From positions 67,603-131,602 of the forward strand of contig JAEUQT010000001.1 in NCBI GenBank assembly GCA_016789445.1: DNA of 64,000 nt. Direction: 5' to 3'. Position numbers and translations under genes: made by a program. Origin of the DNA: a bacterium (GTDB taxonomy: Bacteria; Patescibacteriota; Minisyncoccia; Phycocordibacterales; UBA2100). Under the pieces are notes generated by a model. It made no database searches. It had not been told where the DNA came from and saw nothing but the letters and a program-made list of their open reading frames with translations. Below, in pieces: positions 7,383 through 41,735 of the stretch. Numbering within the stretch: position 1 is the first letter of the stretch; each line of letters begins with the position of its first letter.

Positions 7383-8291
7383 TTAGACGCTGATCTCTCC
7401 AAGCGCGCGGATGCGTTCTTCGACCGGCGGATGGGTCGAGAAGAGCTTCGCGACGAATTTGCCGGCGTCGTGCGCACCGAACGGGTTCGAGATGAAAAGG
7501 TGCGCCGTAGCATGGCTTGCGCGCTCCATGGGTGCCTCGTATGAGGAGATCTTCGCGAGAGCTGACGCAAGCGCATCCGGATAGCGGGTAAGGAGCGCGC
7601 CGGAAGTGTCCGCCAGGAATTCACGGCGGCGTGAGATCGCCAGCTGGATGAGCTGTGCGGCGATGGGAGCAAGGATGATACCGATGATACCGAGCACCAT
7701 CACGATCGCATTCCCTTTACTGTCTCGATCGCCTCCGCCCCAGAAACTCATGCGCAGGAAGATATCCGCGATCATAGCTACGAAACCGGCGAGAACGACC
7801 GCGACGGTCATGACGAGAATATCGCGATTACCGATGTGCGAGAGTTCGTGCGCGATGACGCCCTCAAGCTCGCTGCGATCAAGTCGCTCCAGGAGGCCCG
7901 TGGTTACCGCGACAACGGCATTCTTCGGATTACGCCCCGCCGCAAATGCATTCGGCGCCGGATCATGGATGACATAGAGGCGTGGCTTCGGGAGTCCTGC
8001 CGTTATCGAGAGGTTCTCAAGTATGCGATGCAATTCGCGGAATTCCTTTTCATCCGCTTCCTGCGCGCCCGCGGAACTGATCGCCACCTTATCGGAGAAC
8101 CAGTATGCGAAGATATTCATGAAGAGCGAGAACGCCACCGCTACATAGAGAAGCCCCGGTTCCTGCATATACCACGCGATGAAATACCCGATCGCGATCA
8201 CGAAAACGAGGAAGCCCGTCATGAGGAGCCATGTCCGACGGATATTCCTGCCCTGCTGGGTGTAAAGGGATGCCATAGAAGCAAGTATCAA
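7383..8291 (-). CDS. htpX: M48 family zinc metalloprotease HtpX
   Basis: HELSHIGNRD (HExxH), 4 TM. Classic adjacency to lemA. Confidence 0.9.
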   Translation of the reverse strand: MILASMASLYTQQGRNIRRTWLLMTGFLVFVIAIGYFIAWYMQEPGLLYVAVAFSLFMNIFAYWFSDKVAISSAGAQEADEKEFRELHRILENLSITAGLPKPRLYVIHDPAPNAFAAGRNPKNAVVAVTTGLLERLDRSELEGVIAHELSHIGNRDILVMTVAVVLAGFVAMIADIFLRMSFWGGGDRDSKGNAIVMVLGIIGIILAPIAAQLIQLAISRRREFLADTSGALLTRYPDALASALAKISSYEAPMERASHATAHLFISNPFGAHDAGKFVAKLFSTHPPVEERIRALGEISV

Positions 8292-8353
8292 GCATCATGA
8301 CGGAACTATCAAGAACGTGCTATTTTGACATTAGACGGAGAAAGGAGGCATAC

Positions 8354-8572
8354 ATGCCTTTGAGATATGTTCTACAGGGCGCCGTGATGTTCGGGGATAT
8401 CCTCATCTTCGCTGCCGCAGCGATACTGCTCTGGGCGGCGCCGGATGAGCCACTCATCTGGCTCATGCTCTTCTTGGGTTTCCGCTCCTGGAAAAAGGTG
8501 GGCGGCTTCGAGGCATGGAGAAAGAAGGATCGTGCGCAATTCATGCGCAATGCGAAGTCGCTGGGAATCTAG
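8354..8572 (+). CDS. small membrane protein (72 aa, 2 TM)
   Basis: AAAGGAGG 6 nt upstream of the ATG at 8354. The longer ORF from 8297 would leave no room for a promoter against htpX. Confidence 0.55.
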   Translation: MPLRYVLQGAVMFGDILIFAAAAILLWAAPDEPLIWLMLFLGFRSWKKVGGFEAWRKKDRAQFMRNAKSLGI

Positions 8573-8574
8573 AC

Positions 8575-8602
8575 TGAAAGACCGCCTCTCGGCGGTCTTT
8601 CT
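8575..8602. terminator. bidirectional intrinsic terminator
   Basis: AAAGACCGCC-TCTC-GGCGGTCTTT followed by CTTTTCG, between convergent genes. Confidence 0.55.
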
Positions 8603-8607
8603 TTTCG

Positions 8608-9168
8608 TTAGAACGAAACCTTCACCGGCTGACGAGCAGCCTCTTCTCCTTCAGCAAGAGCGAAGAATTCACGCGTCTTGAACCCGAATGCGTTGCCGAT
8701 GATATTACCCGGGAACTGTTCGAGCGCGTTCTGGAGATCCTGGACGACCGAGTTGTAGAAGCGGCGTGCTGCTTGGATCTTGTTCTCGGTGTCGGAGAGT
8801 TCGCGCTGCAATTCCAGGAAGTTGGTGTTCGCCTTCAAGTCCGGATAGCTCTCCGCTACTGCAAAAAGAGATTTGAGTGCGTCGGTGAGCATATTCTCTG
8901 CCTGCGCATGCTGCGCGACGGTCTGCGCACCCATAGCTGCAGTGCGAGCTTCGGTCACCTTCTGGAGCGTGCCCGCCTCATGCTGCATGTAGCCCTTCAC
9001 GGCTTCAACGAGGTTCGGGATGAGGTCGTAGCGACGCTTCATCTGCACGTCGATATCCGACCATGCTTCCTCCGCGCGATTGGTGAGCGCGACGAAGCGG
9101 TTGTACATGATGATAAGGAGGACGGCGATCGCCGCCACAACGCCCAGCACGATATAGAGAGTTGTCAT
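8608..9168 (-). CDS. lemA: LemA family protein
   Basis: N-terminal TM, then NRFVALTNRAEEAWSDIDVQMKRRYDLIPNLV, characteristic of LemA. Confidence 0.9.
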   Translation of the reverse strand: MTTLYIVLGVVAAIAVLLIIMYNRFVALTNRAEEAWSDIDVQMKRRYDLIPNLVEAVKGYMQHEAGTLQKVTEARTAAMGAQTVAQHAQAENMLTDALKSLFAVAESYPDLKANTNFLELQRELSDTENKIQAARRFYNSVVQDLQNALEQFPGNIIGNAFGFKTREFFALAEGEEAARQPVKVSF

Positions 9169-9194
9169 AGGGTCAGTATAGCATTTTCTTCATC

Positions 9195-12100
9195 TCAGCG
9201 GATACCTCCCGGCGGGACACTGCAGCCACGAGGATTCGGCTCTGCTTCACACAGACACTTGATGAAGCTGTCCATCGCCTGCTCCGGATCACAGGTGCGG
9301 ACATCCTGCGGTGTCGGATTATTGCTTGAGCCATCATTCGATCCTTGCTGGGCGGACGAATTCTGCGAAGTAGGTCGCACCGGATTGCTTTGTGATGCCT
9401 GACTCGCCGCAATCTGCTCGTCGGTGAAGATGCGTGGAGGATCGGTGTCATCGCCGCGGACGCGGATCAGTGTCTCGTTCAGGAGCTTATCCTGCGCACC
9501 CTTCACGTTGCACACCAATCCGAAACGCGTCGATTCAGAAAGCGCACCGGAGTTGATCGAACCATTCTGTCCACCGCGCGCGAATACGGCGAAGTCCGAC
9601 GTCACGATCGCACAGGTCGAGCTGCTGACATCCGTACCCACGGTAGACCACGAGAGTGTTGTCGTGTCGCCATCATCGATAACCTGAGGGTTCCCGACGA
9701 TCGCACCGACCGGTGGTTCTGATGCGGGTTGCGATGGCTGTTGTGGTCGGGATTGATCACCCTCTTCTTCATCGCCACCCGTAAACCACTGCATGAGCCC
9801 TTGGAACAATCCTGACAACATATTCATGCCGCCACCGAAGAATCCTCCGTCGCCTCCGCTTGAACCTGCAGGTCCATAGCCGCCATATGCGATCGGACCT
9901 CCAGAACCGAGATCGCGACCGACTGAAGGGTCGGGACGCGGAGTATCAGTGCGTGGGTCAGGAGCAGGCTGACGCGGAGCGTCGGATGATGTCGTATCGC
10001 TAGAATCATCAGGTGTCGGTGCCGGCACCGGTGTCCCGCCTCCAGGCGGTATCTGGAATATCACACTAGTATCATCTTTGACTGGAATCCCATTGAAGTT
10101 GGTCGCGTCCTTCTGTGTCTCTTGCGGCGCCCCGTCTACCGTCACCTGCTGGTACGTCATCACGACACCGGTGAATCCGAGCGCACCGCAAATGAACTGC
10201 CGCACGCGTCCGCCGAGACAGAGTGCGTTCGCGATGCGGGTTGCGCGCGACGGCTCAGCATCATCTGCCGCTGCTGCGCCCGACCCGCCCGTAGTACCAC
10301 CTGCTCCACCCGAGCCTCCGTCGCTCGCCGCTTGTGCAGCACCGCCATATCGCGCCTCCCATTGCCCGAGTCGGCCGATCATGTCGTCAGCCGGTACTTC
10401 GGTATTCGCGCGAGCGATAGTGAGCGCGCGTGATTCCGCCGCCGCCCGTTCGCGCACCTTGTCCAAGCCGCTCGCCGCGAGTGCACGAGCTTCCGCATCA
10501 CCTTCCGGCGTATTCTTCGCTAACGCTTCTTCCGCACGCACGAGGTCTTGGATCGATTCATCGCCACGCGTAAGAGCGGTGGACATCTCTTTGTTCATGC
10601 TCGCAAGCTCAGTATCACGGACCGAAGGAATCCCGGATTGCGGCTCAGGCGTAACAGCGGCAAGGTCAGCAGCGTTACGCGCCACTATCTGCTGACGCAC
10701 CTGAAGCGCCTCCCTGAGTGTCGCGAGCTCCTGCATACGCTCTAATCGACTACCCTCGGAACGCGACCACGCATCGAGCCGTTGCGCGAATGAATCGTTC
10801 AAAGGAGCGGTAACTTCGGCAGGACGACCGGATCCGGTGAGTCGTGACCATCCGACCTGCGTATTGAAACGTGCACGGGCAAACGCATCGGAAAGCGCAT
10901 TGCGTGTACGAGAAATCAATCCTTCGTCCGCTATCGCAGGTGTTATTGGTCCGCCACCGGTCGTTAACGTCGGGGAGATCTCGCCGTCAGGACGAGCGCC
11001 GGTATTCTCCGGGAACGGGAGTTCAGGGTCCTGTCGCGGGAGCGGAGGCGGATTGAGTGCAGGATCTATCTCTTCCTCGCGGGCAATCGTCGGTGTGCGC
11101 CCCGAAGGAACACCGGGCTCCTGTCCCGGAAGATCCGCAGGACCTTGAGGCGTATTCGGAGTATCGGAAACGCGCGTAATCGACACTTCAAATGGACCTT
11201 TCGGTGCAGCGAGCGCGTCTGCCGAAGTCCACGTTCCCGGTGTTGCGGACGGGACATATGCGACCGGTCCTTCCTGATTCACGATCTGCGCTGCGCGCGC
11301 TTCTGCGATCCTTGCCTCCTCGACGAGACGAAGCTGCTCGGCTTCAGCAAGGCGCTTCGCCTCTGCACGAGCCGCATCTGCTGCGGCAATCGTCTTCTCC
11401 GCTCCACTTCGAGCCGCGGTTTCCAGTGCCTGCCGTTCAGCAAGTGAATCACTCAATCTCGCGGGGGTAGTCTTGATTGCTTGCAACCCTTCCGCGGCCC
11501 CATCTACACCGAATGTCGCTCCGAGAGATACCTTGCCGTGACTATTCGGGACAAGCCTCATCAGCTGCGGGCGCTGCGTCTCAAGCAACTGCGAAGTGCT
11601 TTTGACTGGTTCGAACAATTCACGAACTCGAGCGGCAGTAGCCGCATCAAGTGCGCCTAGGGCTTCCGCATCGGCGATCGCGCGCTCGAACCGATTGACC
11701 TGAGCGACTGACTTCTGAATAGCACTGCTGAGCGATTGCGGATCAAGTACTTTTCCTTGATTGAAATACGCACTCATCAAGCGATTTACGTTATCAGCGA
11801 GTTTCTTCGAGGTATCGAGCTCAGCAAGGAACACTTTTGCTGCGACCGCCTTCGCCTCAGCCGCCTCAACACCGGTAAGCGCCCCCTTCACTTCTGCAGA
11901 AGCTACCGCGGTCGCATCAGCACCGCTAATATCTTCCACACGAACGGTCTTCGATGCGATCTGAACGGGACGCTCCGCAACTTGCACGATTTCATTACCT
12001 AATCGATTCGACGGATTGAGCGCGATCGAGGTCGGAGTCGTCGGGCGAATCATTTCCCCTTCTGTCAAAGGTACCCGCGTTATTGCAATCGGACGCGATT

Positions 12101-15100
12101 CCGCAAGCACCGTCGGTGCAACTGGCTCAAGCGACTGCCCTGTTGGTGATGGCAAGATTTCAGTATTTTCCGGTGTACGCACCGGTACGCCCGGTTCGTT
12201 TGATGCGACCACCTGACCCGAGGAAGGCGTGTTCGCACTGCCTCGAGGGTTTTCCGGAACTGCCGGACCGACTAATGCAGTGCGGATATACGAACCCGCG
12301 TCAGCGATTCTGTTAGCGACCCATGACGGCGCATTACCGATGGCAATCGGTACTTCTATGAGATCGAGCGGGGAGAATCCGCGCGGCTCAGCGGCACTGC
12401 CTGGAGTTCGAGCGGGCTCATTCACGGCGACTGGCGTAGGCTCAGTCGGTCGCACGACGGGCGCCGGTTCGCTCACCAGAACAGGAGAAGGACGCACATT
12501 AAGCGGTGATGTGGCTTCAAGCGCAGACGGAGTGGTAAAATTTCTCACCAATTCCCCTCCCGACTGCGGCGCAGCACTAAAGGGCGACACACGATTGAAT
12601 GCAACATCCGCGATTGCAGCTGCCGGAGCGTCCGGTACCGCGACATTTTCTGCAACCAATACCCCGCCGCCCATATCGCGAAGCGCAGTGCGGACGGTTG
12701 AATCTAACGGACCACCTGCTGGCAGGTTCGCTACAGCGGTATTTACAAGTGCGCGATCGGAAACAGAGGTAAAGTCGGCAGCAGAATCAATTCCCGGACG
12801 ATATCCGAGCATACGCACCACATTCGCTGCTGCAGCACCTTCAACATATCGGTCTGCCACACGCGCACTGCTTTCAGCTTTATGCTGCACCCATGAATGG
12901 GCATACACTTTATCTGAAGGAATGTTGTATCGCTCCTGCAAGAAACGCCCGAGTTTAGCGGCCGTATCGAGCTGTTCAGCAGTAAGCGGATTTTGGAGGC
13001 GTCCCGGCGGATTACCCGCAAATTCAATGCCTATCGTATTCTCGCTGGTGATTACTCCGCGCGTTTGAGAGTTATCGATATATTTATTATCTCCACGCAA
13101 ACTGCTTCCACTTCGAATATGCTTCGGATTGGCACTCTCAGGAGCTGCCCAATAGAAGGTGCCGTCACGTTCCACCCAGATAGTTGTACCGACTTTATTC
13201 GGCCTCGACATCTGCGCTCGTGCATGCCCGACAGCATACGAGCCTTCTGTCTGGTGCATTATGATCGCAACACGTTTTGGCAACGTCTCCGGAGCTTGGA
13301 GCGGAACCATGAAATGCCCTTTCCCCTCCAATCCCGGAATTTCCGGGCGACCAGTCGCCTTCGCCACCTCACCGATAGTGCGCTGTGGCTGAAGCTCGCC
13401 GTTCAGGACCGCAAGCTGCCGCCCGATTTCAGCATCTGCACGCGCCGCCTCAGCAGCACTGACTCCACCCTGACCATCGCGACGCCCTGCCAATTCACGC
13501 GCCACGTTGTCACGCAGCTTCTTATATGCACTCGTCCCCACTGCCGATGGCTGCTCCTTCAAGACTTGTGCCGCAAGTTTCGTGCGAGGAATATATGGAT
13601 TCTGCTTGATGACCTGATTCACGATGTCTTTTACACCCTGCTCCGTCGGCGTGAAGATTCGGCCGAAGAAATCATCGACCTCATTAAGCGGATTGATCGC
13701 TTCTAGCTGCGGAGTTCCGACCGGTGCACGCGGAGGAATATTAGCAGTGAGAGATCGAGATGCCAGCTCATCGGGAGTAACGACCACGTTCTGCACGGGA
13801 GGAACAGTGGCGGTTTGAGCTGAGACGGTATTGGGAGGGGGCGCAGTCTCAACTCGTGCAACGAGAGTAGCACTGCCATCTACGGGTCCAGGTGTATAAC
13901 CAGTACCCTCGAGCACGGTTACTTTCACATCATTCAACACGCCACTGTTATTCCCATATTTGTTATTACTTAAATAGCGCATTGACGCCTCGTTGAGATC
14001 AATGATTCTTCCCGGAACGAGAGGACCATTATCATTGATCTTTACGATGAGCTTCTTATCTCCTTGTTCAACCAATGCGAATCCATTGCGAGGATAGTTC
14101 CCGTGCCCCATCTGATATTTCGCCGCCAAATCCGTCTGAAGCGCCGCTTCGTATGCTTTAGGGTTGTACCGTGCGCCGGTAGCCAGCTTCGTCCCGCCGG
14201 TGCGCCAGCCCGGCTTCGCTGGGTTATATGTCGATGCAGCACCTGATTCAACTCCCTTAATGCCGTCAATTTCGACGGTCACGGGAAGAGTGGCTTGCGA
14301 GGCAGGAGCTCCTTGCGCAGGAGTAACCGAACTGACTATGGGCACATCAATACCCGCAACCGGAATCGGTGGCAATGGATTCGTCAGCATACCGACACTC
14401 AACGCGACAGGAGCTGCAACACGACGAACGCTTTGCACTGCACCCTGCACTGCATCTCCGACATTACTTAACGCTTGCGAGAATCGCGTCGGCAAAGAGG
14501 TGAATGCAGCGGCCGGCGTACTCAATCCAGACGCAGGCAATCCAGCAGCAACTGGCGGTATTTCCGCCGCCGCTCGCGGCTTCGTCGAGAATGGTGACTG
14601 CGATGCCGGGCGTGAAGAAACGCTGATAGCTCTATTATTCGGCAGCGGTGCAGACGAACCCGCATCCGGCACGACAACGGGCCGAGGTGCAGGAGTGAAT
14701 CCTGCCTCAGGGACGATGCCCCGCGCCCGCATCTCGCTCTCCAGTGCATTCATCACATTCCTACCATTACCCGATGTGACGAAGTCTGTCTTACCCATCG
14801 AATTATGCAGACGGTTATATACAGCTCTCTCGAATGCTTCTGGCGCGACCGTACCTGATGCAACCTCCGCCTGAACAGCCTCGCGCGCGCTGCGCGTATA
14901 TGCATTCGCAAATCGCGATTCAGCCCCAGAAAGATCGTCTGCAAACGCTGGATTGAAATCCAAATCCGCAGCGCGAGCAGCTGCAGCTGCTCCGCCTGCG
15001 CCTGTATTACTTCCACTTCCGAAGAGGGTTCTTCCGGCAGCAGACACACCATCAAATGCACTACCGAGGGGGTTGCCCACGGATCCGATGCCTGCGACTT

Positions 15101-17168
15101 TTACTGCTCCTATACCCATCTGTTGAGCGGCCGCAATGCCTGTAGTCTTCCCAAGCACCCCTGCTACTGGCAACGCCCCAGCAAAGCCTCCCGCAAGGGT
15201 CCAGTTGTTCGCCTGATCAACCGATTGCGTAACGACCTGCGCTGTCGCATTCGCGATCACGCCCTCGCGCCACGCGGCGGGGTCGCTAATGAAAAGTCCA
15301 AGGTCGCGCAAACCTGCTTCCCCTCCGAAAATAGGCTTGTATAACAACGTTCCGAACCCGAACATCTCATTTACCTGAGCGCGCGCTTGCACGGCATCGT
15401 ACATCTGCTTCTCAAAGGCCGGATCACTGCCATCAAGCATCCTCTCCAGATTCGAATTCACCGTCTTCAATTGATCCGATGTCTCGCGCAACAAGGAGTT
15501 CACGTCGCCTTCCGGGATATCGCGCACTCCCATCGCCTCAAGCGCAGCAAGCTGATCAACTCGAGCGCGCAATTGATCACGGACGTCAATGGCATTTCCC
15601 GCTATTTCCTTCAGATTTGCGGAGGTGCTTTGTAGCGCAAGAGCTTTATCATTCGCCCGCTGCGACGCAGCCGATACACGTGCGCCCTCAGGAGTAGTTT
15701 CAAGCAGTTCTTGCACGGCTGCATCACTGAATTCCGGAAGCGCGGCCATCTGACCATTCGCTGCTAATCCTGACGCATTCGAACTAAGGATTCCCAGAGC
15801 TTCTGCACGAGATGCTTCCTGAAGTCCTGAATTAAGCTGAGCTAGTGTCTGTGCTCGATCGGAATAATTAATGAAGCGATCCATCGTTCGTGCAAACATG
15901 CCACGATCATCGGGCGCGGACTGTACGATACCGATAGCTTCCTTGTATTGGTCCGAAGAAGGGGTCCAACCCTGCTCCTTGCTGCCAAGTATTTCGTTCA
16001 CATAACCGCTCCGTACTTCCTCAGCGACCTGTGGGCTATCAAGCATCTGTGCGAGTTCCGTCACATTCTGCGGCAATCCGGCGATCGGAGTATCGGCACC
16101 CCGTGCAACATCAATGACAGGAAGCTCGTTTCCTGTAGGCGCATCGGGTAGCCCCGCTCCAGGCAGAGCCTCTTCAGTCGGCGTGAGTACCGCCATCGCC
16201 TTTTCCCACTGAGCAGCTGCAAAATCCCTCACTCCCTGCCATGCATTGGATGCAGTTTCTTGGGCAGCCACAAGCGCATTGCCGATCGCCGATCCTGCTG
16301 ATGACTGTACGCCAGGCAGATTCTCCGCCATCGACGCCCATGGATTCGAGAATGTACCTCCTGTTGACGGCGTATCTGATACGAACGACCCCGGACCACC
16401 CGAAGGAGATGGTGCGAAATTCCATCCCTGCGGTGGCGCGATTGAAGTCGGATTCTGCAGATACTGCTGCATCCGACCGAAAACCGTATCGACCGGATTC
16501 ACTTTTGTGCCGGTGATATCGCTCACTGCATTCAATGAGTCGGCCTGTTGTCGCGCAAGCGACTCGAGAGCACCTTGGCTTGCAGGAGCCGTGAGCGGCC
16601 TACCGCCCAGAGAATCTATTGCCTGATTGAGATCATCGAATCCAGAGGAGCCAGGATCGCGTATCGGCGTCGGATCCGGCGGAAGCTCACCGAATGCCTT
16701 CTGCAATCCCTCATAATATTCCTGCGCAGATGTCTGCGGGATGTCGCTTCCTGTCTGTCCGGGTTGCTGAGTGCCCCCGATATTCGTCTCACCGTTCTGC
16801 ATCGCCTCTTTGGCTTCGTAGAGCAAGCTCTGACATGTCGGACCAGCGACAGTACAGGACGGCATCTGCTTGCCTCCTTGTATGCCCGCCTTCCAGCAGG
16901 TCTTAGTACTCATGTAACCGGTTATGTTCACCTTATCGCACTCATTCTTGTTGCCCGTCTGATTCGATTGCGTTGAAGCGCTACCGGTGGAAGGAGTAAT
17001 CGTCTCTTCGAGCTGCGGGCATTTGCCGCACGCCTCCGTCACCGCCCCTCCGACGCTGCAATTGACCTTCGGCTGATCCGCCGGACAGGTGAGCGCAAAG
17101 ATCGCAGCGGGCGATGCAATGAGGATCGAGATTAACGACAGAAGAGACGCGGTCCGCGCGTAAGTCAT
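9195..17168 (-). CDS. giant secreted multidomain protein (2657 aa): signal peptide, Cys-rich N-terminus, Ala-rich coiled coils, Amidase_2 (PGRP-like) domain, RlpA-like DPBB domain, C-terminal Cys-rich module
   Basis: Continuous ORF. Signal peptide MTYARTASLLSLISILIASPAAIFA. Amidase_2 pattern IIMHQTEG...IGIEFAG...YAHSWVQHK at about 12820..13285. DPBB pattern IVKINDNGPLVPGRIIDLNEASMRYL at about 13940..14290. C-terminal module matches the 893-aa paralogue. Confidence 0.9.
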   Translation of the reverse strand: MTYARTASLLSLISILIASPAAIFALTCPADQPKVNCSVGGAVTEACGKCPQLEETITPSTGSASTQSNQTGNKNECDKVNITGYMSTKTCWKAGIQGGKQMPSCTVAGPTCQSLLYEAKEAMQNGETNIGGTQQPGQTGSDIPQTSAQEYYEGLQKAFGELPPDPTPIRDPGSSGFDDLNQAIDSLGGRPLTAPASQGALESLARQQADSLNAVSDITGTKVNPVDTVFGRMQQYLQNPTSIAPPQGWNFAPSPSGGPGSFVSDTPSTGGTFSNPWASMAENLPGVQSSAGSAIGNALVAAQETASNAWQGVRDFAAAQWEKAMAVLTPTEEALPGAGLPDAPTGNELPVIDVARGADTPIAGLPQNVTELAQMLDSPQVAEEVRSGYVNEILGSKEQGWTPSSDQYKEAIGIVQSAPDDRGMFARTMDRFINYSDRAQTLAQLNSGLQEASRAEALGILSSNASGLAANGQMAALPEFSDAAVQELLETTPEGARVSAASQRANDKALALQSTSANLKEIAGNAIDVRDQLRARVDQLAALEAMGVRDIPEGDVNSLLRETSDQLKTVNSNLERMLDGSDPAFEKQMYDAVQARAQVNEMFGFGTLLYKPIFGGEAGLRDLGLFISDPAAWREGVIANATAQVVTQSVDQANNWTLAGGFAGALPVAGVLGKTTGIAAAQQMGIGAVKVAGIGSVGNPLGSAFDGVSAAGRTLFGSGSNTGAGGAAAAARAADLDFNPAFADDLSGAESRFANAYTRSAREAVQAEVASGTVAPEAFERAVYNRLHNSMGKTDFVTSGNGRNVMNALESEMRARGIVPEAGFTPAPRPVVVPDAGSSAPLPNNRAISVSSRPASQSPFSTKPRAAAEIPPVAAGLPASGLSTPAAAFTSLPTRFSQALSNVGDAVQGAVQSVRRVAAPVALSVGMLTNPLPPIPVAGIDVPIVSSVTPAQGAPASQATLPVTVEIDGIKGVESGAASTYNPAKPGWRTGGTKLATGARYNPKAYEAALQTDLAAKYQMGHGNYPRNGFALVEQGDKKLIVKINDNGPLVPGRIIDLNEASMRYLSNNKYGNNSGVLNDVKVTVLEGTGYTPGPVDGSATLVARVETAPPPNTVSAQTATVPPVQNVVVTPDELASRSLTANIPPRAPVGTPQLEAINPLNEVDDFFGRIFTPTEQGVKDIVNQVIKQNPYIPRTKLAAQVLKEQPSAVGTSAYKKLRDNVARELAGRRDGQGGVSAAEAARADAEIGRQLAVLNGELQPQRTIGEVAKATGRPEIPGLEGKGHFMVPLQAPETLPKRVAIIMHQTEGSYAVGHARAQMSRPNKVGTTIWVERDGTFYWAAPESANPKHIRSGSSLRGDNKYIDNSQTRGVITSENTIGIEFAGNPPGRLQNPLTAEQLDTAAKLGRFLQERYNIPSDKVYAHSWVQHKAESSARVADRYVEGAAAANVVRMLGYRPGIDSAADFTSVSDRALVNTAVANLPAGGPLDSTVRTALRDMGGGVLVAENVAVPDAPAAAIADVAFNRVSPFSAAPQSGGELVRNFTTPSALEATSPLNVRPSPVLVSEPAPVVRPTEPTPVAVNEPARTPGSAAEPRGFSPLDLIEVPIAIGNAPSWVANRIADAGSYIRTALVGPAVPENPRGSANTPSSGQVVASNEPGVPVRTPENTEILPSPTGQSLEPVAPTVLAESRPIAITRVPLTEGEMIRPTTPTSIALNPSNRLGNEIVQVAERPVQIASKTVRVEDISGADATAVASAEVKGALTGVEAAEAKAVAAKVFLAELDTSKKLADNVNRLMSAYFNQGKVLDPQSLSSAIQKSVAQVNRFERAIADAEALGALDAATAARVRELFEPVKSTSQLLETQRPQLMRLVPNSHGKVSLGATFGVDGAAEGLQAIKTTPARLSDSLAERQALETAARSGAEKTIAAADAARAEAKRLAEAEQLRLVEEARIAEARAAQIVNQEGPVAYVPSATPGTWTSADALAAPKGPFEVSITRVSDTPNTPQGPADLPGQEPGVPSGRTPTIAREEEIDPALNPPPLPRQDPELPFPENTGARPDGEISPTLTTGGGPITPAIADEGLISRTRNALSDAFARARFNTQVGWSRLTGSGRPAEVTAPLNDSFAQRLDAWSRSEGSRLERMQELATLREALQVRQQIVARNAADLAAVTPEPQSGIPSVRDTELASMNKEMSTALTRGDESIQDLVRAEEALAKNTPEGDAEARALAASGLDKVRERAAAESRALTIARANTEVPADDMIGRLGQWEARYGGAAQAASDGGSGGAGGTTGGSGAAAADDAEPSRATRIANALCLGGRVRQFICGALGFTGVVMTYQQVTVDGAPQETQKDATNFNGIPVKDDTSVIFQIPPGGGTPVPAPTPDDSSDTTSSDAPRQPAPDPRTDTPRPDPSVGRDLGSGGPIAYGGYGPAGSSGGDGGFFGGGMNMLSGLFQGLMQWFTGGDEEEGDQSRPQQPSQPASEPPVGAIVGNPQVIDDGDTTTLSWSTVGTDVSSSTCAIVTSDFAVFARGGQNGSINSGALSESTRFGLVCNVKGAQDKLLNETLIRVRGDDTDPPRIFTDEQIAASQASQSNPVRPTSQNSSAQQGSNDGSSNNPTPQDVRTCDPEQAMDSFIKCLCEAEPNPRGCSVPPGGIR

Positions 17169-17176
17169 TACATCCT

Positions 17177-17182
17177 ATTATA
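17177..17182 (-). promoter_or_regulatory. -10 box TATAAT 8 nt upstream of giant-gene ATG (possible leaderless transcript)
   Basis: Minus strand reads TATAATAGGATGTAATG. The same architecture sits upstream of the 893-aa gene. Confidence 0.35.
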
Positions 17183-17225
17183 TTGAGCATTCCCGCCCAC
17201 TATCCGAGATTTCCCCATTTCACGA

Positions 17226-17268
17226 ACGCTCAAAAGAAAACGACCTCGCATATTTTTGCGAGGTCGTT
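17226..17268 (-). terminator. rho-independent terminator after small secreted-protein gene
   Basis: Minus strand AACGACCTCGC-AAAAATAT-GCGAGGTCGTT followed by TTCTTTTG. Confidence 0.55.
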
Positions 17269-17285
17269 CTACGGTGCCCGAGGAT

Positions 17286-17543
17286 TCAGATACCTCGGGC
17301 GGGCGCCGGACCGAGATCGACCGGACCCTTGCGGAGCTGCTCCTTCATGTGGCGCTCGAGCGCGCACTGGTCGGTGATTTCGAATCCGAACTCATCGGGC
17401 ACCGTCACGGTGTCCGCGACAGAGCACGTGTCCGACTGCAGCCAATCATGACTGCCGACCAACATCGTACGCGGCTGATCGCCGGCAAGAGCTGCTGTTG
17501 CCACAAGAGCGGCACCCAGTACGAGAAGCGACGTTGCCTTCAT
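17286..17543 (-). CDS. small secreted protein (85 aa, signal peptide, 2 Cys)
   Basis: ATG at 17543 preceded by AAAGGAGA. MKATSLLVLGAALVATAALA signal. Own terminator. Sits between the two giant-protein genes. Confidence 0.7.
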   Translation of the reverse strand: MKATSLLVLGAALVATAALAGDQPRTMLVGSHDWLQSDTCSVADTVTVPDEFGFEITDQCALERHMKEQLRKGPVDLGPAPARGI

Positions 17544-17698
17544 GGAAAATCTCCTTTTGTCAGGCGTTGCTTGTACTGTGACTATGTTACCATATATAAC
17601 GAAATAAGTCAATAGCAACGAACGGGCATCTGAAAAAGAACCATCTAAAGCCATTTTCCGGATTCGTCTGTGAAGGCGTTCTGAAGATGCTCTTGGAT

Positions 17699-20380
17699 TT
17701 ACTGCACCAGCGAGCAGCCGTTCGGGTTCGGCTCCGCTTCGCAGAGACACTTGATAAATGTATCCATCGATTGTTCTGGGTTACAGGTGCGCACATCAAT
17801 CGGATTCGGATTCGAGGAGCTGCCGCCAGATGCGCCCGCTTCCGCACCCGCTCCCCCTTGTACCGGTGCCGCCGTGGAAACCCTGCCGCTTTGTGCGAAG
17901 AGCCGCTTCGGTTCGTTCTCGTCGCCATTCACTCGAACCACCGTCTCATTCACGAACTTATCCTTCCCGGATTCGATGTCACAGATGACCCCGAAGCGTG
18001 TCGAGGAATTGAGTGCAGGTGTCGTGAGCTCGCCATCTTTCCCGCCCCGCTTGATCACGTTCAGCGTGGAGTCGACGACGACGCACGAGAGCGTGCCGAC
18101 GCTCGTCCATGAAAGTACGCTGGTATCGCCATCATCTATAGATGAAGGGTTGGCTGTGATGGATACAACGGCAGCAGGTTGTGTTGGTTTCGGCTGTGAG
18201 GGAGTTGGAGCTGAATTCGATTCGTCATCGTTGAAGAAATTAAGAACGGTACCGAGGAGCGCGCTCAGTATTCCCAGACCTCCTTGCAGGAATGAGTTCG
18301 GGCGCGATGCGGACCGCTGCGTCTGCGTCGGCTTTGGATCCGGTTGCGGCGCTGGCTGCGGAGCAGGTGCTGGGGTTGGAGCCGGCTTGGTATCTGGCGT
18401 CGGCGTGGGTTCAGGTTCAGGAGTCGGCGTCGGTTCCGGCTGAGCAGGAGTCTCCGTAACAGGAATTTCGACCCCCTCCGGAATACTCGCACCGACTCCC
18501 AGCACATACCCGAGACGATCGATCGCCGTGCGCGCAGCTTCTGCCACACGCTCGCCGATCTTGCTCAAACCTTCAAGCAGACGCGAAGGGGTCGGTGCCG
18601 GCTGCGGGGCCGCAGCCGCTATTTCAGATTCGAGATCGATTTCAAAGGTCGTACCTTCAAGTGCTTTCTCGATGGCCGGATCGATCGCACGAAGTTCATC
18701 GAATTTCTTATTGATGATAGCGCTTCGCTCTTCGTCAGTGGTTGCGGCATCAAATTCTTGAACAAGTTCGTTGTATTCTCGCTCGAACTGCGCACGCTGC
18801 TGCGGAGTAAGCGTGTTCTCCAGCGCCTCGGCTTCGGGCGGCGTAGCATCCGTCATCACCGATCCGCCTTGAGCGACTTGTACCGTCGAAGGGATCGCGC
18901 GTACGTCAGCGGCGATCTTCTCGAGACCCTCACGCATCGAGGCAGCCTTCAATTCATTGAGCGCCTGTCGGTAGGCCACGCCTTCCTTCGAGCCGATGCC
19001 GACCCAATCAAGCATCTCGCCGAACCACGAACGATCATCAAGTGCTTCGCGCGTTTCTTCTACCGCAGCAAATGCCTCTGCTGCTGTCGTAGGAATGATG
19101 GTGGCGACTACCGACGGAGGGAGCGGCGTTACCTCGGGAATCGGAACCGTGATGCCGCTCGGATTCTCTGCATCCTTAACCACGGCTGGCGGCAAGGTGC
19201 CGCGCGGTGTATCGCCGATGAGAGGCTCTCCGGAACCGACGGTCGGCAAACCGATGCGATCCGCAGGCTGCAACGGGACGATCGGGAATCCGGTAAGGAT
19301 GTTGCGTTCCAAGGGAAGATCAAGCGGCGATTGTGTCGGCTTGTTGATGTCGATGCCGCGCGATTCGTTGAGTCGCTTCAGTTTCTCGTCGAGCGCCTTG
19401 AGACGATCCTGCGCCGCAGCATCGGCGACCTGTACCGGCGGCTTGGTAGTGACCGGCGTCGGTTGCGGTTGCGGTTGCGGCTGTGGTGTCGGTGCAGGTG
19501 CAGGAGCTGGCGTCGGTGAAGAATTTCCTGAGGAGAGACCGCCTCCCCCGCCGAATCCGCCGAAAAGGCTGCCGATAGTGGAGATGAAATTCGAGAACAG
19601 ATTGAACCCCGCAGACGCACCAGTGCCACCGAATGAGGGTGACGCATCACCGAAGGTATTCCCGAACGGATTCCCTCCGCTGAAAACACCGTCTAGATAT
19701 TCCCTGTTGCCGGAGATGATTCCTCCGATACTCGGCTTGGTTCCCGGTTTCAGCGTGAAGGGAGAGCCCGAATCGGTAAACGTGGTTCCTGGTTTCGGTG
19801 GTGTTACCGGCTTTGGCGATTCCGAAATAAGTTCACCCTCCCATCCCTCTCCTGTCGGCGACGGGCGGACACTTCCACTAGTTCCACCTCCACCTGAACC
19901 GCCGCTCGGAATTGAAGGCGCGGACGGACTCGGGCTCGGCGTTGAAGGCTGCGGAGCACTCGGCGTCGGCGAAGGGGTTGGTGTAGAGGGAGTGGGGGTC
20001 GGGGTTGGTGCTGGTTTAAGTGGATCATCTTTTCCACTTGAGCCACCAGGGATTTCGTACGGCTTATCTTCGAGAGGCTTTCCATCGCACTTGAGCGATG
20101 CCACGCATTTTCCTGACTTACATATTGAAGTGATGACAGGATTGGCGATGTCTTTGCACTCCAAACCGACCTGATCTCCTGATATCGGCTCACGCATACA
20201 CACTTCCCCCTCTTTCAGAGGATCGAAACCATTCTCAACCCCTTGGCCGGCAGCGCAGCGGAAATTACCGACATCTTGGCGTGTACTACCTCGAAGGGGC
20301 GTATCTTGCGCAAAAAGCGTAAGCGGCATACTCGCTGCGAACACAAAAAGTGCCGCAGAGATCTGAAGATGTATCCTCAT
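17699..20380 (-). CDS. large secreted protein (893 aa) with Pro/Thr- and Gly-rich linkers and C-terminal Cys-rich module paralogous to the giant protein
   Basis: Signal peptide MRIHLQISAALFVFAASMPLTLFA. PTPTPEPEPTPTP linkers. C-terminal SIDDGDTSVLSWTSVG...DVRTCNPEQSMDTFIKCLCEAEPNPNGCS. Minus-strand TATAAT 7 nt upstream of the ATG (plus 20388..20393). Confidence 0.85.
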   Translation of the reverse strand: MRIHLQISAALFVFAASMPLTLFAQDTPLRGSTRQDVGNFRCAAGQGVENGFDPLKEGEVCMREPISGDQVGLECKDIANPVITSICKSGKCVASLKCDGKPLEDKPYEIPGGSSGKDDPLKPAPTPTPTPSTPTPSPTPSAPQPSTPSPSPSAPSIPSGGSGGGGTSGSVRPSPTGEGWEGELISESPKPVTPPKPGTTFTDSGSPFTLKPGTKPSIGGIISGNREYLDGVFSGGNPFGNTFGDASPSFGGTGASAGFNLFSNFISTIGSLFGGFGGGGGLSSGNSSPTPAPAPAPTPQPQPQPQPTPVTTKPPVQVADAAAQDRLKALDEKLKRLNESRGIDINKPTQSPLDLPLERNILTGFPIVPLQPADRIGLPTVGSGEPLIGDTPRGTLPPAVVKDAENPSGITVPIPEVTPLPPSVVATIIPTTAAEAFAAVEETREALDDRSWFGEMLDWVGIGSKEGVAYRQALNELKAASMREGLEKIAADVRAIPSTVQVAQGGSVMTDATPPEAEALENTLTPQQRAQFEREYNELVQEFDAATTDEERSAIINKKFDELRAIDPAIEKALEGTTFEIDLESEIAAAAPQPAPTPSRLLEGLSKIGERVAEAARTAIDRLGYVLGVGASIPEGVEIPVTETPAQPEPTPTPEPEPTPTPDTKPAPTPAPAPQPAPQPDPKPTQTQRSASRPNSFLQGGLGILSALLGTVLNFFNDDESNSAPTPSQPKPTQPAAVVSITANPSSIDDGDTSVLSWTSVGTLSCVVVDSTLNVIKRGGKDGELTTPALNSSTRFGVICDIESGKDKFVNETVVRVNGDENEPKRLFAQSGRVSTAAPVQGGAGAEAGASGGSSSNPNPIDVRTCNPEQSMDTFIKCLCEAEPNPNGCSLVQ

Positions 20381-20466
20381 TAGGTCTATTATATGCAGAG
20401 CGGCCGCCCTTTCGGGCGGCCGCTGCTTCTATTCTGTTGAGAACTCTAGCTGACGTAGCGACGGGA

Positions 20467-22122
20467 TTACTCCATCCCCATGCCGCCCATGCCCATGTCG
20501 CCGACTGCCGGATTGGCTTTCTTGTCTTCAGGTTCATCAGCGACCGCCGCTTCAGTTGTGAGAAGGACCGCTGCAGCGGAAGCCGCGTTCTGTACGCCCG
20601 AGCGCGTCACCTTCACCGGATCGACGATACCCGCTTCGATCATGTCGACGATCGTCGGTTCGGTCGATTCGCTTGCAGCGTCGTAGCCGAAGTTGCCGCC
20701 CTTCGTGACGACTTCGCGCAGAATCACTTCCGCATCTTCACGGCCGGCGTTCTTCGCGATCTGGAGAAGCGGAGCGGAAAGTGCGGTGATGAGGATGCGG
20801 TAGCCGATCGAGAATTCGTCGTGCGCACCTGCTTTCACGTTCTTCGCGATCTTCGCACCGACTTTCGCAAGCGCGGAACCGCCGCCCGGGACGATTCCTT
20901 CCGCGATAGCCGCCTTCGTCGCGTTGACCGCGTCTTCGATCTTGTCCTTGAGGTATTTCATCTCGGTCTCCGTTGCTGCACCGACACGGATGACCGCGAC
21001 ACCGCCGGAGAGCTTCGCGATACGCTCGTCGAGCTTCTCCGTATCGAATTTCGAATCCGAATTCTCTGCCTGCTTCTTGAGCTGCGCGACACGCTTCTCG
21101 ATGTCTGCTTTCTTTCCCTTGCCACCGACGATGACGGTCGAATCCTTCGTCGCGACGACGCGCTGTGCGCGACCGAGCATCGTGAGATCCGCTTTCTCGA
21201 GAGTCGAACCGGTGTCATCGGAAATGACCTGTGCACCGACGGTGATCGCGATATCCGCAAGGATCTCCTTCTTGCGATCGCCATAGCCCGGTGCCTTCAC
21301 CGCGAGCACGCTGAACGCGCCACGGAGCTTGTTGAGGACGAGCATCGGGAGCGCTTCGCCATCCACATCATCCGCGATGATGACGAGCTCTTTCTTGCCA
21401 CCTTGGGCTAGCTTCTCCAAGAGAGGAAGGATGTCTTTCACCGTCGAGATCTTCTTATCGGTGATGAGGATCGGCGCATCCTTCGCTTCTGCTTCCATAC
21501 GCTCCGCATTGGTGATCATGTACGCAGAGACGTAGCCTTTATCGAACTCGAGTCCTTCGACATAATCCGTCTCGATGCCGATCGACTGCGATTCTTCGAC
21601 GGTCACCACGCCATCCTTGCCGACTTTCTCGACGACATCCGCGATCTTCGCGCCAAGCTCTTCAGATTCAGCGGAGATGGATGCGACCTGACGCGTCTCC
21701 TCCTTGGTCTTGATCGGCTTCGCCATCTTCTTCAACTCATCGACAGCGTCCTTTGCCGCAGCTTCGATGCCGCGACGGATCATCATCGCGTTCGCGCCCA
21801 TTGCCGTGCGCTTCAAGCCTTCGTGGACGAGCGCCTGCGTGAGGACGACTGCGGTCGACGTACCATCACCTGCCTTGTCGTTCGTCTTCGTCGCGACCTC
21901 CTTCACGATGCCCGCGCCCATGTTCTCGAACTTATCCGCGAGCGTGATCTCCTTCGCGATGGAAACGCCGTCGTTGGTGATGACCGGACCGCCCCATGAG
22001 CGATCGATCGCGACATTGCGACCACGCGGACCGATGGTCACTTTCACTGCACCGGCGACGATGTCGACACCGCGCTTGAGCGCGTTGCGGACATCTCCCT
22101 CAAAGATTACTTGTTTTGCCAT
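20467..22122 (-). CDS. groL: chaperonin GroEL (60 kDa)
   Basis: MAKQVIFEGDVRNALKRGVD N-terminus. GGM-repeat C-terminus. Confidence 0.97.
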   Translation of the reverse strand: MAKQVIFEGDVRNALKRGVDIVAGAVKVTIGPRGRNVAIDRSWGGPVITNDGVSIAKEITLADKFENMGAGIVKEVATKTNDKAGDGTSTAVVLTQALVHEGLKRTAMGANAMMIRRGIEAAAKDAVDELKKMAKPIKTKEETRQVASISAESEELGAKIADVVEKVGKDGVVTVEESQSIGIETDYVEGLEFDKGYVSAYMITNAERMEAEAKDAPILITDKKISTVKDILPLLEKLAQGGKKELVIIADDVDGEALPMLVLNKLRGAFSVLAVKAPGYGDRKKEILADIAITVGAQVISDDTGSTLEKADLTMLGRAQRVVATKDSTVIVGGKGKKADIEKRVAQLKKQAENSDSKFDTEKLDERIAKLSGGVAVIRVGAATETEMKYLKDKIEDAVNATKAAIAEGIVPGGGSALAKVGAKIAKNVKAGAHDEFSIGYRILITALSAPLLQIAKNAGREDAEVILREVVTKGGNFGYDAASESTEPTIVDMIEAGIVDPVKVTRSGVQNAASAAAVLLTTEAAVADEPEDKKANPAVGDMGMGGMGME

Positions 22123-22132
22123 AGAGAATTAG

Positions 22133-22453
22133 TTAGTTGAAGACCGCAAGGATGCTGGACTCGCTGATAATGTAGTATTCCTGATCCTCTATCTTCACTT
22201 CGTCGAAACCGTATTTGGAGAACATCACCTTGTCGCCCACTTTGACGCCTACGGGGATGATGTCGTTATCGTCACCGCGCTTGCCGGGACCGACCGCGAC
22301 GACCGTTCCGCGCTCAGGCTTTTCAGTACGCGCCGTATCAGGGATATAAATGCCGCCAGGAGATTTCGCATCGTCCGCCGAATCCGGTCGGACTAAGACA
22401 CGATCACCAAGCGGTTGAATGCCGATCTTTTTTGATCCTTTCGATGTGGCCAT
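22133..22453 (-). CDS. groS: co-chaperonin GroES (10 kDa)
   Basis: 106 aa with IQPLGDRVLV and VVAVGPG mobile loop. 10 nt upstream of groL. Confidence 0.95.
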   Translation of the reverse strand: MATSKGSKKIGIQPLGDRVLVRPDSADDAKSPGGIYIPDTARTEKPERGTVVAVGPGKRGDDNDIIPVGVKVGDKVMFSKYGFDEVKIEDQEYYIISESSILAVFN

Positions 22454-22533
22454 AGTGCCTAGATAGATTAGTTATAAGCGCACAAATTATTGCAAAAAAA
22501 GCGCCGAAATCAAGTCTAAAAAAGAAGAAGCGG

Positions 22534-22560
22534 CATCTGTTCGATGCCGCTTCGTAATTC
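22534..22560 (-). terminator. minus-strand intrinsic terminator upstream of groES
   Basis: AAGCGGCATC-GAACA-GATGCCGCTT followed by CTTCTTTTTT on the minus strand. Confidence 0.5.
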
Positions 22561-22812
22561 TTCGGATGGGCCTATGCGGCCAGTCGGCGTGCCTTCTTCG
22601 GTCGTCGCGAGAATAACCTGCCGATTCTTCGAATAAACCGCTTGAAAAACGGCGTCGAGACGGTTGGTTGCGTGCGATGTGTCGCCCGATTGCAGCATTG
22701 CCGGTACTTCTTCTGATCTCTACCAGACATCCTGAACCCTCAGATTTGTACGCTTCAGACAGCCTGAAGCTCGCGGTAGTATGCTCCTCCTTTTTCTCGA
22801 CGCAAGCCTAAC

Positions 22813-22841
22813 TTGACTAGTGTTTGTATATATGATATTAT
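22813..22841 (+). promoter_or_regulatory. putative promoter for secG (-35 TTGACT, 17-nt spacer, -10 TATTAT)
   Basis: TTGACT at 22813..22818 and TATTAT at 22836..22841 in an AT-rich patch. Confidence 0.4.
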
Positions 22842-22907
22842 TATATCCATCAACGAGTCCGGTGGTCCTAAATTGACTGCCTCCCCCCGTTCTGATACCT
22901 TGAAGCC

Positions 22908-23138
22908 ATGGAAATCTCGGCGGTACTGCCATACGTGCAGATCGCTCTCTCGGTACTCCTCGTCGTTGCGATCCTCTTGCAGCGAACCGGAGCAAGCCTT
23001 GGGGGTGCTTTCGGTGCTGATAACTTCAGCTCCGGTTTCCACACGCGCAGGGGGTTTGAGAAGACACTCTTCCAAGCTACCATTGTCCTCGGCATCCTGT
23101 TTGCTTTGTCTGCGCTCGTGAATATCCTTATCAGTTAG
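22908..23138 (+). CDS. secG: preprotein translocase subunit SecG
   Basis: 76 aa, two TM. LLQRTGASLGGAFGADNFSSGFHTRRGFEKTL matches the SecG signature (LLQ..G.GLG.AFG). Confidence 0.8.
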   Translation: MEISAVLPYVQIALSVLLVVAILLQRTGASLGGAFGADNFSSGFHTRRGFEKTLFQATIVLGILFALSALVNILIS

Positions 23139-23201
23139 TCCGGCACGCGGCATATTCGCGGCCTCCGAGGACTCTTTCCTCGTGCTTCTACTTTTGTCTA
23201 C

Positions 23202-39926: not shown

Positions 39927-39984
39927 AACCGCACTATACCAACGCCGCGTATTTTTTCCATGAACCAACAAGATTCTCTTGTTT

Positions 39985-40095
39985 TTGAGAACCCTCGGTT
40001 CTCAACGGACGCCAGCGCTTCGCTCGGCGCCCTGCTCTCCGACACGGGAAAACTACAGTTTTCCCGACCCCTTTCGCCTCGCGCTGCTGCGCGAG
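39985..40095 (+). repeat. structured intergenic repeat, copy C
   Basis: TTGAGAACCCTCGGTTCTCAA, CCCTGCTCTCCGACAC, GGGAAAACTACAGTTTTCCC, CTCGCGC-TGCTG-CGCGAG. Confidence 0.7.
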
Positions 40096-40100
40096 CCGCT

Positions 40101-40694: not shown

Positions 40695-40756
40695 ATGAAT
40701 ACTAAGACGTGCGCAGCCAAGGCATCTTTCGATGCCCGGGCTGCGCAAAGGCACTG

Positions 40757-40972: not shown

Positions 40973-41053
40973 ATTTGCAAGATGAGGTTAATTCCTAATC
41001 ATCTCGACCGCTTCTGGTTATATACGCAGGCGGTGAACCAAATATGAACGCGC

Positions 41054-41704: not shown

Positions 41705-41735
41705 GAGAAGAGTATGGCAGAGAGGGAGGCCGACT

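Follow-up and report, generated by a model that had tools for sequence, protein, structure and literature searches.

In Bacillus anthracis, the adjacent genes sap and eag encode proteins with a common SLH anchor, and mucins and von Willebrand factor end in C-terminal cystine knots (CTCK). Small C-terminal sorting domains are tripartite, with a motif, a transmembrane segment and an arginine cluster, and some of these signals contain cysteine, as in MYXO-, JDVT-, CGP- and Synerg-CTERM (Haft 2023, doi 10.1101/2023.06.07.544157). We compared these systems to a conserved C-terminal module in a 64-kb stretch of a patescibacterial genome (contig JAEUQT010000001.1, positions 67,603-131,602; hereafter the window), where two neighboring genes encode the exported proteins A and B. 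An initial annotation of the window had suggested that the C-terminal module of A and B is a sorting or anchoring domain. We read the window together with related loci of 8-29 kb (L001-L011), and we tentatively propose, with a probability of about 40%, that the module stays uncleaved and serves to dock or retain A and B at one site of the cell envelope.

A and B have a single significant BLASTP segment in common, which aligns residues 2443-2651 of A with residues 697-891 of B (94 of 211 positions identical, 45%, E 4e-49), and every other segment between the two proteins has E > 2. No further copy of the module was found in the window by tblastn with either C-terminus (next best E 0.59). The module spans positions 9198-9842 in A and 17702-18292 in B, or ~200-215 residues. 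The homology reported in the initial annotation is thus real, and the motifs and the four tail cysteines that it quoted are present in both translations, but the homologous segment starts ~45 residues further N-terminal than described there and takes in a helix and a linker. Amino acid and nucleotide identities between A and B are 35 and 42% in the helix, 28 and 44% in the linker, 48 and 56% in the immunoglobulin (Ig)-like domain, 38 and 49% in the region behind it, 32 and 38% in the spacer, and 83 and 72% in the tail. The initial estimate of ~75% nucleotide identity therefore describes the tail, where 30 codons give 72% and the best 89 nucleotides 77.5%, but no other region of the module. In each of the six module regions measured, synonymous sites have reached saturation (proportion of synonymous differences, pS, 0.60-0.88), and the modules of A and B are thus ancient paralogues rather than a recent duplication, as had been concluded before. 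The tail, in which the proportion of nonsynonymous differences (pN) is 0.15 at a pS of 0.79, is under very strong purifying selection. Recent gene conversion between A and B was considered and excluded, because synonymous sites are saturated in the tail as well.

The module of A consists of an amphipathic, Gly-flanked helix, an acidic and Pro/Gln-containing linker, an Ig-like sandwich, a Ser/Gly spacer and a 4-Cys tail (Table 1). We modeled the last 217 residues of A with AlphaFold2 (AF2), using a 37-sequence alignment (mean predicted local distance difference test score, pLDDT, 79.8). Seven strands are predicted at model residues 47-130, with a conserved extension to about residue 150 (pLDDT 89-98), and the same fold is predicted for B, with pLDDT values of 87-95 over the core and 76-83 at its C-terminal edge. 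When the A module was searched against the PDB with Foldseek, all matches were generic Ig folds, from antibody V domains, Fc receptors and a macroglobulin domain to a fragment of GhpA, the giant grappling-hook protein, with best values of E 1.2e-3, probability 1.0 and a target template modeling score of up to 0.69. According to these predictions, part 2 of the module is an Ig-like beta-sandwich, the fold that the initial annotation had suggested testing for. It contains two conserved cysteines that were not part of that description (Cys-2519/Cys-2553 in A, Cys-766/Cys-800 in B) and that probably brace the sandwich as one pair; in the wide family, neither these nor a tryptophan vary. The Ig core ends at residue 2570 of 2657 in A and at residue 836 of 893 in B, so that ~57-87 residues follow it. 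In A and most A-type relatives, the strand after the core (residues ~2568-2572 of A, in the region of window positions 9399-9420) reads RVRGDD and includes an RGD tripeptide, which is NGD in B. Within the B family, 31 of 33 invariant columns fall in residues 745-889, and the tail and the Ig-like domain are the two most conserved regions (share of sequences with the commonest residue, 0.79 and 0.67, respectively).

The helix in front of the Ig-like domain has an Eisenberg hydrophobic moment of 0.40 and a mean hydrophobicity of 0.42 in A. Across nine module helices tested, these values range from 0.34 to 0.60 and from 0.20 to 0.56, respectively, and many relatives carry Lys, Asp or Gln in the helix. 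On the Eisenberg scale, the helix is predicted to be surface-seeking and not transmembrane. We also considered that it might span the membrane, a reading that we rejected: the helix is too polar in many members, and a membrane-spanning helix would place an Ig domain of the disulfide type in the cytoplasm.

Cysteines are confined to the terminal domains of both proteins and come in even numbers. A has eight at residues 28-112, a pair at 2317/2327, two in the Ig-like domain and four in the tail, and ~2200 consecutive residues (113-2316) contain none; B has six N-terminal cysteines, two in the Ig-like domain and four in the tail. The 2317/2327 pair of A is an isolated C-x9-C motif in a hydrophobic stretch, and the L001 and L002 proteins contain several C-x5-C pairs in their middle parts. 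Four tail cysteines are found in A, B and their close relatives, and two in distant relatives (C-x-P...F-x-x-C-L). Since the distant relatives keep only the first two, the connectivity is probably C1-C2 and C3-C4, and the tail may form two consecutive disulfide loops, or one in distant relatives. The terminal knot described in the initial annotation is not supported, because four cysteines are too few for a true cystine knot, which requires at least three disulfides, one of them threading the ring formed by the other two. A and B do resemble mucins and von Willebrand factor in being giant secreted proteins with Cys-rich ends, a long Cys-free middle rich in Pro, Ser, Thr and Gly, and a small terminal Cys unit, but the module tail has only four cysteines (two in relatives) and no sequence relation to CTCK. 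The even cysteine number, four or two, argues against a true knot and leaves no spare cysteine for intermolecular bonds. The module disulfides are presumably extracellular. The window encodes a DsbD/CcdA-type transmembrane domain fused to redoxin and thioredoxin-like domains (35103-36791, minus strand), as would fit a handling of thiols and disulfides outside the cytoplasm for Cys-rich exports such as A and B.

We next asked where the module occurs. Neither copy matched any family in Pfam (E <= 10) or NCBIfam (E <= 1), and a profile search of the PDB returned nothing at E <= 1; full-length A gave only a weak match to a double-psi beta-barrel (DPBB) among PDB sequences. Searched with a profile at E <= 1e-3, 1.84 billion representative proteins yielded only 219 matches, which fall into three classes. 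Class 1 comprises ~28 proteins with the full module, which are either ~800-990 or 1900-6650 aa long. Class 2 contains more distant giants with the parts in the same order and a tail of the form WCDPNLPIDxFxQCLCxLEPxGC or a reduced 2-Cys form (QLCNPEIGITRFTWCLLNNR, ACDPNSSxYFDCL…, ICHPSLPYDEFVACVLR). In class 3, proteins with many internal tandem Ig repeats are matched by the Ig part only, mostly by its N-terminal portion. We re-scanned 157 retrieved proteins and five proteins from the window and loci with separate hidden Markov models (HMMs). The 4-Cys tail was found in 60 proteins, ends 2-11 residues before the C-terminus in all 60, and is accompanied by exactly one Ig match in 58 of them. 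Seventy-eight proteins contain the core pattern C-x-P-x(4-10)-[FYWI]-x-x-C-[LIV]; every match lies in the last 25 residues and none is internal, at a chance expectation of 0.4 matches in shuffled sequences. Some relatives have helix and Ig only and stop right after the Ig-like domain. The whole module is thus restricted to the C-terminus, which bears out the C-terminal bias proposed at the outset, whereas the Ig-like domain alone is not position-specific: this half resembles the internal tandem repeats of class 3, and the module as a whole is never internal.

All labeled sources of the matches are Patescibacteria (Candidatus Paceibacterota, "Patescibacteria group", Candidatus Kaiserbacteria and one metagenome-assembled genome labeled Saccharibacteria), and as far as seen the module family is confined to this group, also termed the Candidate Phyla Radiation (CPR), and to its Paceibacterota-like members. 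A word-indexed homologue search returned 10 close fragments for class 1 and three for the distant alignment, and a metagenome locus scan returned only two loci. No relative was found in a scan of viral contigs, which argues against a phage origin. We found no earlier description of the module in the searchable literature, where the nearest text treats other giant proteins (PMC12419801).

The initial annotation regarded the carriers as otherwise unrelated, but our comparison indicates that they form one mosaic family. The N-terminal Cys-rich domain of A (residues 26-187) is common to several giants and its DPBB region to others, including members of class 2, whereas the B-type proteins have their own common N-terminal Cys-rich domain. 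Hybrids exist: the 1807-aa protein of L002 and protein P0013 carry a B-type head on an A-type body. When the passenger regions are grouped by single linkage, 45 of 62 sequences are joined. Because the carriers are mutually related, the terminal position is largely explicable by descent within one family. With 219 matches in the search above and related carriers, the module is, judged by sequence, not a general or promiscuous tag. Each locus has one or two carriers, and usually these are neighboring genes for a ~600-1000-aa protein (B) and a giant (A). Tandem pairs of module genes occur in eight loci (the window, L001, L002, L004, L007, L008, L010 and L011); in L001 the upstream gene is seen as its tail at 3-197, and in L007 and L011 the smaller partner has helix and Ig but no tail. 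Ig identities within class 1 are 52-69% among A-types, 53-55% among B-types and 39-49% between A- and B-types, and all exceed most class 1-class 2 values, which suggests shared constraint or an old homogenization of the two modules.

In L002, a relic tail copy (…RCLSEAEPNPAGCTIPPGGI) lies at ~1181-1270 on the plus strand, ~400 bp downstream of a B-type gene ending at 793. It sits within an otherwise unrelated 161-aa open reading frame (ORF) and looks like a decayed partial duplication of the 3' end of the gene.

We compared the module to known terminal modules in turn. As had been noted initially, A and B lack LPXTG: the last match of A to a relaxed pattern, [LIVNS]Px[TSA][GNSA], lies at residue 1528 (of 2657) and that of B at residue 429 (of 893), and there is none within ~35 residues of the C-terminus. 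The hydrophobic segment and basic tail of LPXTG-type ends were not found either; the final 40 residues are hydrophilic, and there is no Kyte-Doolittle peak >=1.3 in the last 120 residues of either protein. Like LPXTG, PEP-CTERM, GlyGly-CTERM, MYXO-CTERM and similar signals, the module is strictly C-terminal, and like the Cys-containing ones it has invariant cysteines. Unlike the tripartite signals, its tail is hydrophilic, is predicted to be a folded helix-loop and has no transmembrane segment or Arg cluster after the Cys motif; no NCBIfam model of such a domain matched the A or B module at E <= 1. The C-terminal domain of the type IX secretion system (T9SS; Por_Secre_tail) is likewise a beta-sandwich of ~80-100 residues near the C-terminus of large proteins with Sec signals. 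The Ig-like domain of our module is not terminal, however, and occurs in only one or two proteins per locus. TIGR04183 and PF18962 matched neither module (NCBIfam E <= 1, Pfam E <= 10), and no T9SS family was matched among the ORFs scanned in the window and related loci. The organism, a CPR bacterium, is also presumed to lack an outer membrane.

The non-covalent anchors (SLH, CWB2, GW/SH3b, LysM and the Lactobacillus S-layer wall-binding domain) are similar in being conserved terminal modules on divergent exported proteins, in occurring on neighboring paralogues with the same module, in lacking a transmembrane segment or cleavage motif, and in the variable remainder of their carriers. No SLH, CWB2, LysM, SH3b/GW or SLAP family in Pfam matched either module at E <= 10. 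Our module differs from them as a single Ig-like sandwich with a disulfide-stapled tail and an amphipathic helix, and the likeness is functional only. With Big-type tandem Ig repeats, in turn, the module has a generic Ig fold in common, and its pattern ANPxxIxxGxxxxLxWxSxxAxxC...TTxYxLxC recurs in proteins with 3-24 internal repeats, five of which showed no credible Pfam match when scanned; the Ig-like domain of the module is single, terminal, preceded by a helix and usually followed by a Cys tail. No candidate sorting enzyme emerged, and no conserved one is adjacent to A and B. The initial idea of a sorting or anchoring domain is thus supported in part, by the C-terminal position, the lack of a known family and the absence of LPXTG; the related carriers, only one or two per locus, the missing tripartite features, an Ig domain away from the extreme end and the want of a candidate sorting enzyme do not support it.

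Both proteins begin with typical Sec signal peptides, as judged by inspection. After the signal peptide, A contains no segment with a Kyte-Doolittle mean >=1.3, and the strongest hydrophobic segment of B is the module helix (1.52); mature A and B are therefore predicted to have no membrane anchor. In an AF2 model of full-length B, 538 of 893 residues (60%) have pLDDT < 50, and the better predicted parts (block pLDDT mostly >=70) are residues ~31-100, a few helices and the C-terminal module. A contains two putative peptidoglycan hydrolase domains, an RlpA-like DPBB, also matched more weakly by TIGR00413 (E 1.7e-5, below its cut-off) and PDB entry 4avr (E 0.015), and an amidase_2 domain. MBL8158003.1, annotated as an N-acetylmuramoyl-L-alanine amidase, is a same-length member of the 90%-identity cluster of A.

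Since A and B have no apparent membrane anchor, the module is their most conserved part and known sorting features are absent, a docking role is favored by elimination. We envision the module as a foot that would hold the proteins once their signal peptides have been removed. The helix would lie on the outer membrane face or in the groove of a partner, and the Ig-like domain and disulfide-stapled tail would attach to a conserved component of the envelope or to one another. A and B would thereby be held at the same site, with their long flexible bodies and N-terminal Cys-rich heads reaching outward, and the RlpA-like and amidase_2 domains of A might act from this tethered position. Several points weigh against this proposal. 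No ligand or partner emerged from the analysis. The module helix is predicted with moderate confidence (pLDDT ~45-72). There is no evident reason why a docking fold should stop just 2-11 residues before the C-terminus, and such strictness could mean that a free C-terminus is recognized. The tail is missing from the B-types of L007 and L011 and the helix from some relatives, such as B of L008, so that no single part of the module is universally required. Finally, the fast divergence of the A and B modules relative to neighboring genes is more typical of exposed surfaces in an arms race than of an element docking to the producing cell.

The module, or just its Cys tail, could alternatively be a sorting or attachment signal, by which a CPR machinery exports, cleaves or covalently attaches the proteins, comparable to the T9SS C-terminal domain or LPXTG. 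The strictly terminal position of the core motif, the tail as the most conserved segment, the presence of the module on two proteins with different N-terminal domains and a beta-sandwich that recalls the T9SS domain are all in line with this idea, as are the known C-terminal signals with invariant cysteines (Haft 2023, doi 10.1101/2023.06.07.544157). We nevertheless regard it as unlikely: transmembrane segment, Arg cluster and matches to sorting models are all missing, common descent of one or two carriers per locus can explain the position, and tail-less B-type partners exist. Moreover, N-terminal Sec signals should suffice for export if, as is assumed for Patescibacteria, there is no outer membrane. 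Nor do the adjacent LemA and M48 proteins qualify as the machinery, as they face the cytoplasm by the positive-inside rule and the lemA-htpX pair is also found in Streptococcus pneumoniae (PMC8546594). In a related scenario, which we judge to be comparably improbable, the tail would be a CPR-specific C-terminal signal without a transmembrane segment, its free stapled end being read by a machinery, or the Cys-rich ends would join A and B end to end in the manner of mucins and von Willebrand factor; either way, a long extracellular tether of these ultra-small cells to their hosts would result, with A delivering peptidoglycan hydrolases.

The module might instead be a distal, target-binding end, an adhesin tip or wall-binding domain that steers A and B with their hydrolases to a host or prey, as the C-terminal wall-binding domains of lysins do. 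Most CPR bacteria live as episymbionts, adhesins often contain Ig-like domains, the Foldseek matches include a GhpA fragment, A carries DPBB and amidase_2 domains, and A and B outpace the flanking housekeeping genes, as expected of host-facing proteins. We doubt this reading, since determinants of host specificity are usually the most variable part of a protein, and here the module is the most conserved and the middle is variable. In addition, a tail that is almost the same in both paralogues suggests a single conserved ligand, and with the signal peptide cleaved and the C-terminus distal, nothing would hold the proteins on the producer. Quite unlikely, finally, is a module with no targeting role that simply provides a stable folded cap or folding nucleus to disordered, fast-evolving proteins. 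Most of B is predicted to be disordered with its two ends best predicted, and descent would account for the terminal position, but a cap explains neither the very strong purifying selection on a 30-residue tail set off from the Ig-like domain by a disordered spacer, nor the retention of the amphipathic helix in distant members and of the module in both partners of a conserved gene pair.

One more conceivable function of the tail is that of a recognition element for LemA or the HtpX-like M48 peptidase, encoded downstream of A, in quality control or in a CaaX-like processing of protein ends. The type I CaaX protease Ste24 belongs to the M48 family. The gene order in the window is SBP - secG - groES - groEL - B - A - lemA - M48 (htpX-like), and this colinear block (SBP_bac_5 to M48, 7383-24941) recurs in several Paceibacterota-like genomes (L007, L011 and L009). 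lemA is found downstream of the module gene in nine of the 10 related loci reaching that far (L001-L003, L005-L007 and L009-L011), and eight of these nine also have the M48 gene. The loci are fairly close relatives (LemA 67-88%, GroEL 68-83% identical) with a larger colinear block in common, however, and synteny may thus reflect plain common descent. In L008, the A/B pair is kept without groEL, lemA or M48. The M48 HELSH active site and the bulk of LemA are probably cytoplasmic by the positive-inside rule, while the module appears built for an oxidizing exterior. Proteins P0068 (L009) and P0099 end in …C-V-L-R, formally a CaaX box, and in L009 the M48 gene lies ~1.3 kb downstream; given the predicted cytoplasmic active site, these ends are probably coincidental. 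In Streptococcus pneumoniae, lemA and htpX are adjacent and co-regulated, and no such giants are reported there (PMC8546594). We thus consider a recognition role highly improbable, and LemA and M48 are probably not part of the module mechanism.

A and B evolve by far the fastest in the colinear block and much faster than their housekeeping neighbors: LemA of L005, L006, L007, L009 and L011 is 86-88% identical, whereas the Ig-like domains are only 27-43% identical (class 1 versus class 2). In L008 (17494-23614), the pair adjoins a prepilin-type N_methyl protein near pilM-like genes; this neighborhood, seen once, hints at a link to a type IV pilus region. In the window, the 530-bp gap between B and A contains an 85-aa ORF (17286-17543, minus strand) with a signal-peptide-like start (MKATSLLVLGAALVATAALAG…) and no Pfam match. 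We looked for a conserved small gene at this place and dismissed it, as the 88-aa gene of L004 and the 45-aa gene of L007 in the same position have no detectable similarity to the 85-aa ORF. The sortase mentioned in the initial annotation is present (40101-40754, minus strand; PF04203, E 4.8e-21), ~20 kb from A and B and overlapped by an ORF on the plus strand (39846-40985). A 264-aa ORF beside it (41054-41848) has no Pfam match and could be a sortase substrate. Elsewhere in the window, a phage Mu Gam-like gene (52463-53020, plus strand; PF07352, E 4.2e-11) adjoins a tRNA-guanine transglycosylase gene; it may encode a stand-alone DNA-end-binding protein or be left over from a prophage.

Table 1. 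Module parts, other domains of A and B, and downstream genes in the window (Kyte-Doolittle, mean hydropathy; i-E, independent E value)
Feature	Residues	Position	Strand	Evidence and remarks
Gene A	1-2657	9195-17168	minus	2657 aa, Sec-exported giant; ORF and translation
A signal peptide and N-terminal Cys-rich domain	1-112	16833-17168	minus	8 Cys; sequence, Cys map
A RlpA-like DPBB (lytic transglycosylase-type)	976-1072	13953-14243	minus	PF03330, E 5.8e-8
A Amidase_2 (N-acetylmuramoyl-L-alanine amidase)	1301-1429	12882-13268	minus	PF01510, E 1.8e-10
A part 1, amphipathic helix GMNMLSGLFQGLMQWF	2448-2462	9783-9827	minus	Gly-rich before, acidic after; AF2 model 8-22, pLDDT ~60-70; helix HMM matches across loci
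A part 2, predicted Ig-like beta-sandwich and conserved extension	2487-2590	9399-9710	minus	pLDDT 89-98; Cys 2519, 2553
A part 3, disordered Ser/Gly/Asn/Gln spacer	2591-2621	9306-9398	minus	pLDDT < 50 at model 162-164 and 168-177; 32% identity to B
A part 4, 4-Cys tail DVRTCDPEQAMDSFIKCLCEAEPNPRGCSVPPGGIR	2622-2657	9198-9305	minus	Cys 2626, 2638, 2640, 2649; pLDDT 76-85, helix at model 192-202
Gene B	1-893	17699-20380	minus	893 aa, Sec-exported, mostly disordered between two folded ends; translation and AF2
B signal peptide and N-terminal Cys-rich domain		20081-20380	minus	6 Cys at 42-98; common to B-type relatives
B part 1, amphipathic/hydrophobic helix FLQGGLGILSALLGTVLNFF	697-716	18233-18292	minus	BLASTP start; Kyte-Doolittle mean 1.52; AF2 helix 698-716
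B part 2, predicted Ig-like domain	737-836	17873-18172	minus	Cys 766, 800; Ig HMM i-E 2.9e-42
B part 3, Ser/Gly/Ala spacer	837-857	17810-17872	minus	pLDDT < 50 for 841-857
B part 4, 4-Cys tail ...DVRTCNPEQSMDTFIKCLCEAEPNPNGCSLVQ	858-893	17702-17809	minus	Cys 866, 878, 880, 889; tail HMM i-E 2.5e-20
lemA		8608-9168	minus	PF04011, E 6.9e-60; directly downstream of A
htpX-like M48 peptidase		7383-8291	minus	PF01435, E 8.6e-36; HELSH after two N-terminal transmembrane helices

The module is a new, uncharacterized domain architecture on a conserved CPR gene pair and a variation on the terminal modules that anchor or sort surface proteins. Its parts provide a searchable signature (helix, single Ig-like domain, spacer and the terminal C-x-P-x(4-10)-[FYWI]-x-x-C-[LIV] motif) that picks out an exported pair, one partner of which carries peptidoglycan hydrolases, and that is under the strongest constraint in proteins that otherwise change fast and are mostly disordered. 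Curators gain a new domain to model and experimentalists a small, expressible fragment of ~170-215 aa. How the surface apparatus of Patescibacteria is built and held is largely uncharted, in cells that are thought to have no outer membrane and are mostly uncultured. If the module does retain or sort proteins, the known bacterial strategies of surface anchoring would come to include one from a major uncultured radiation.

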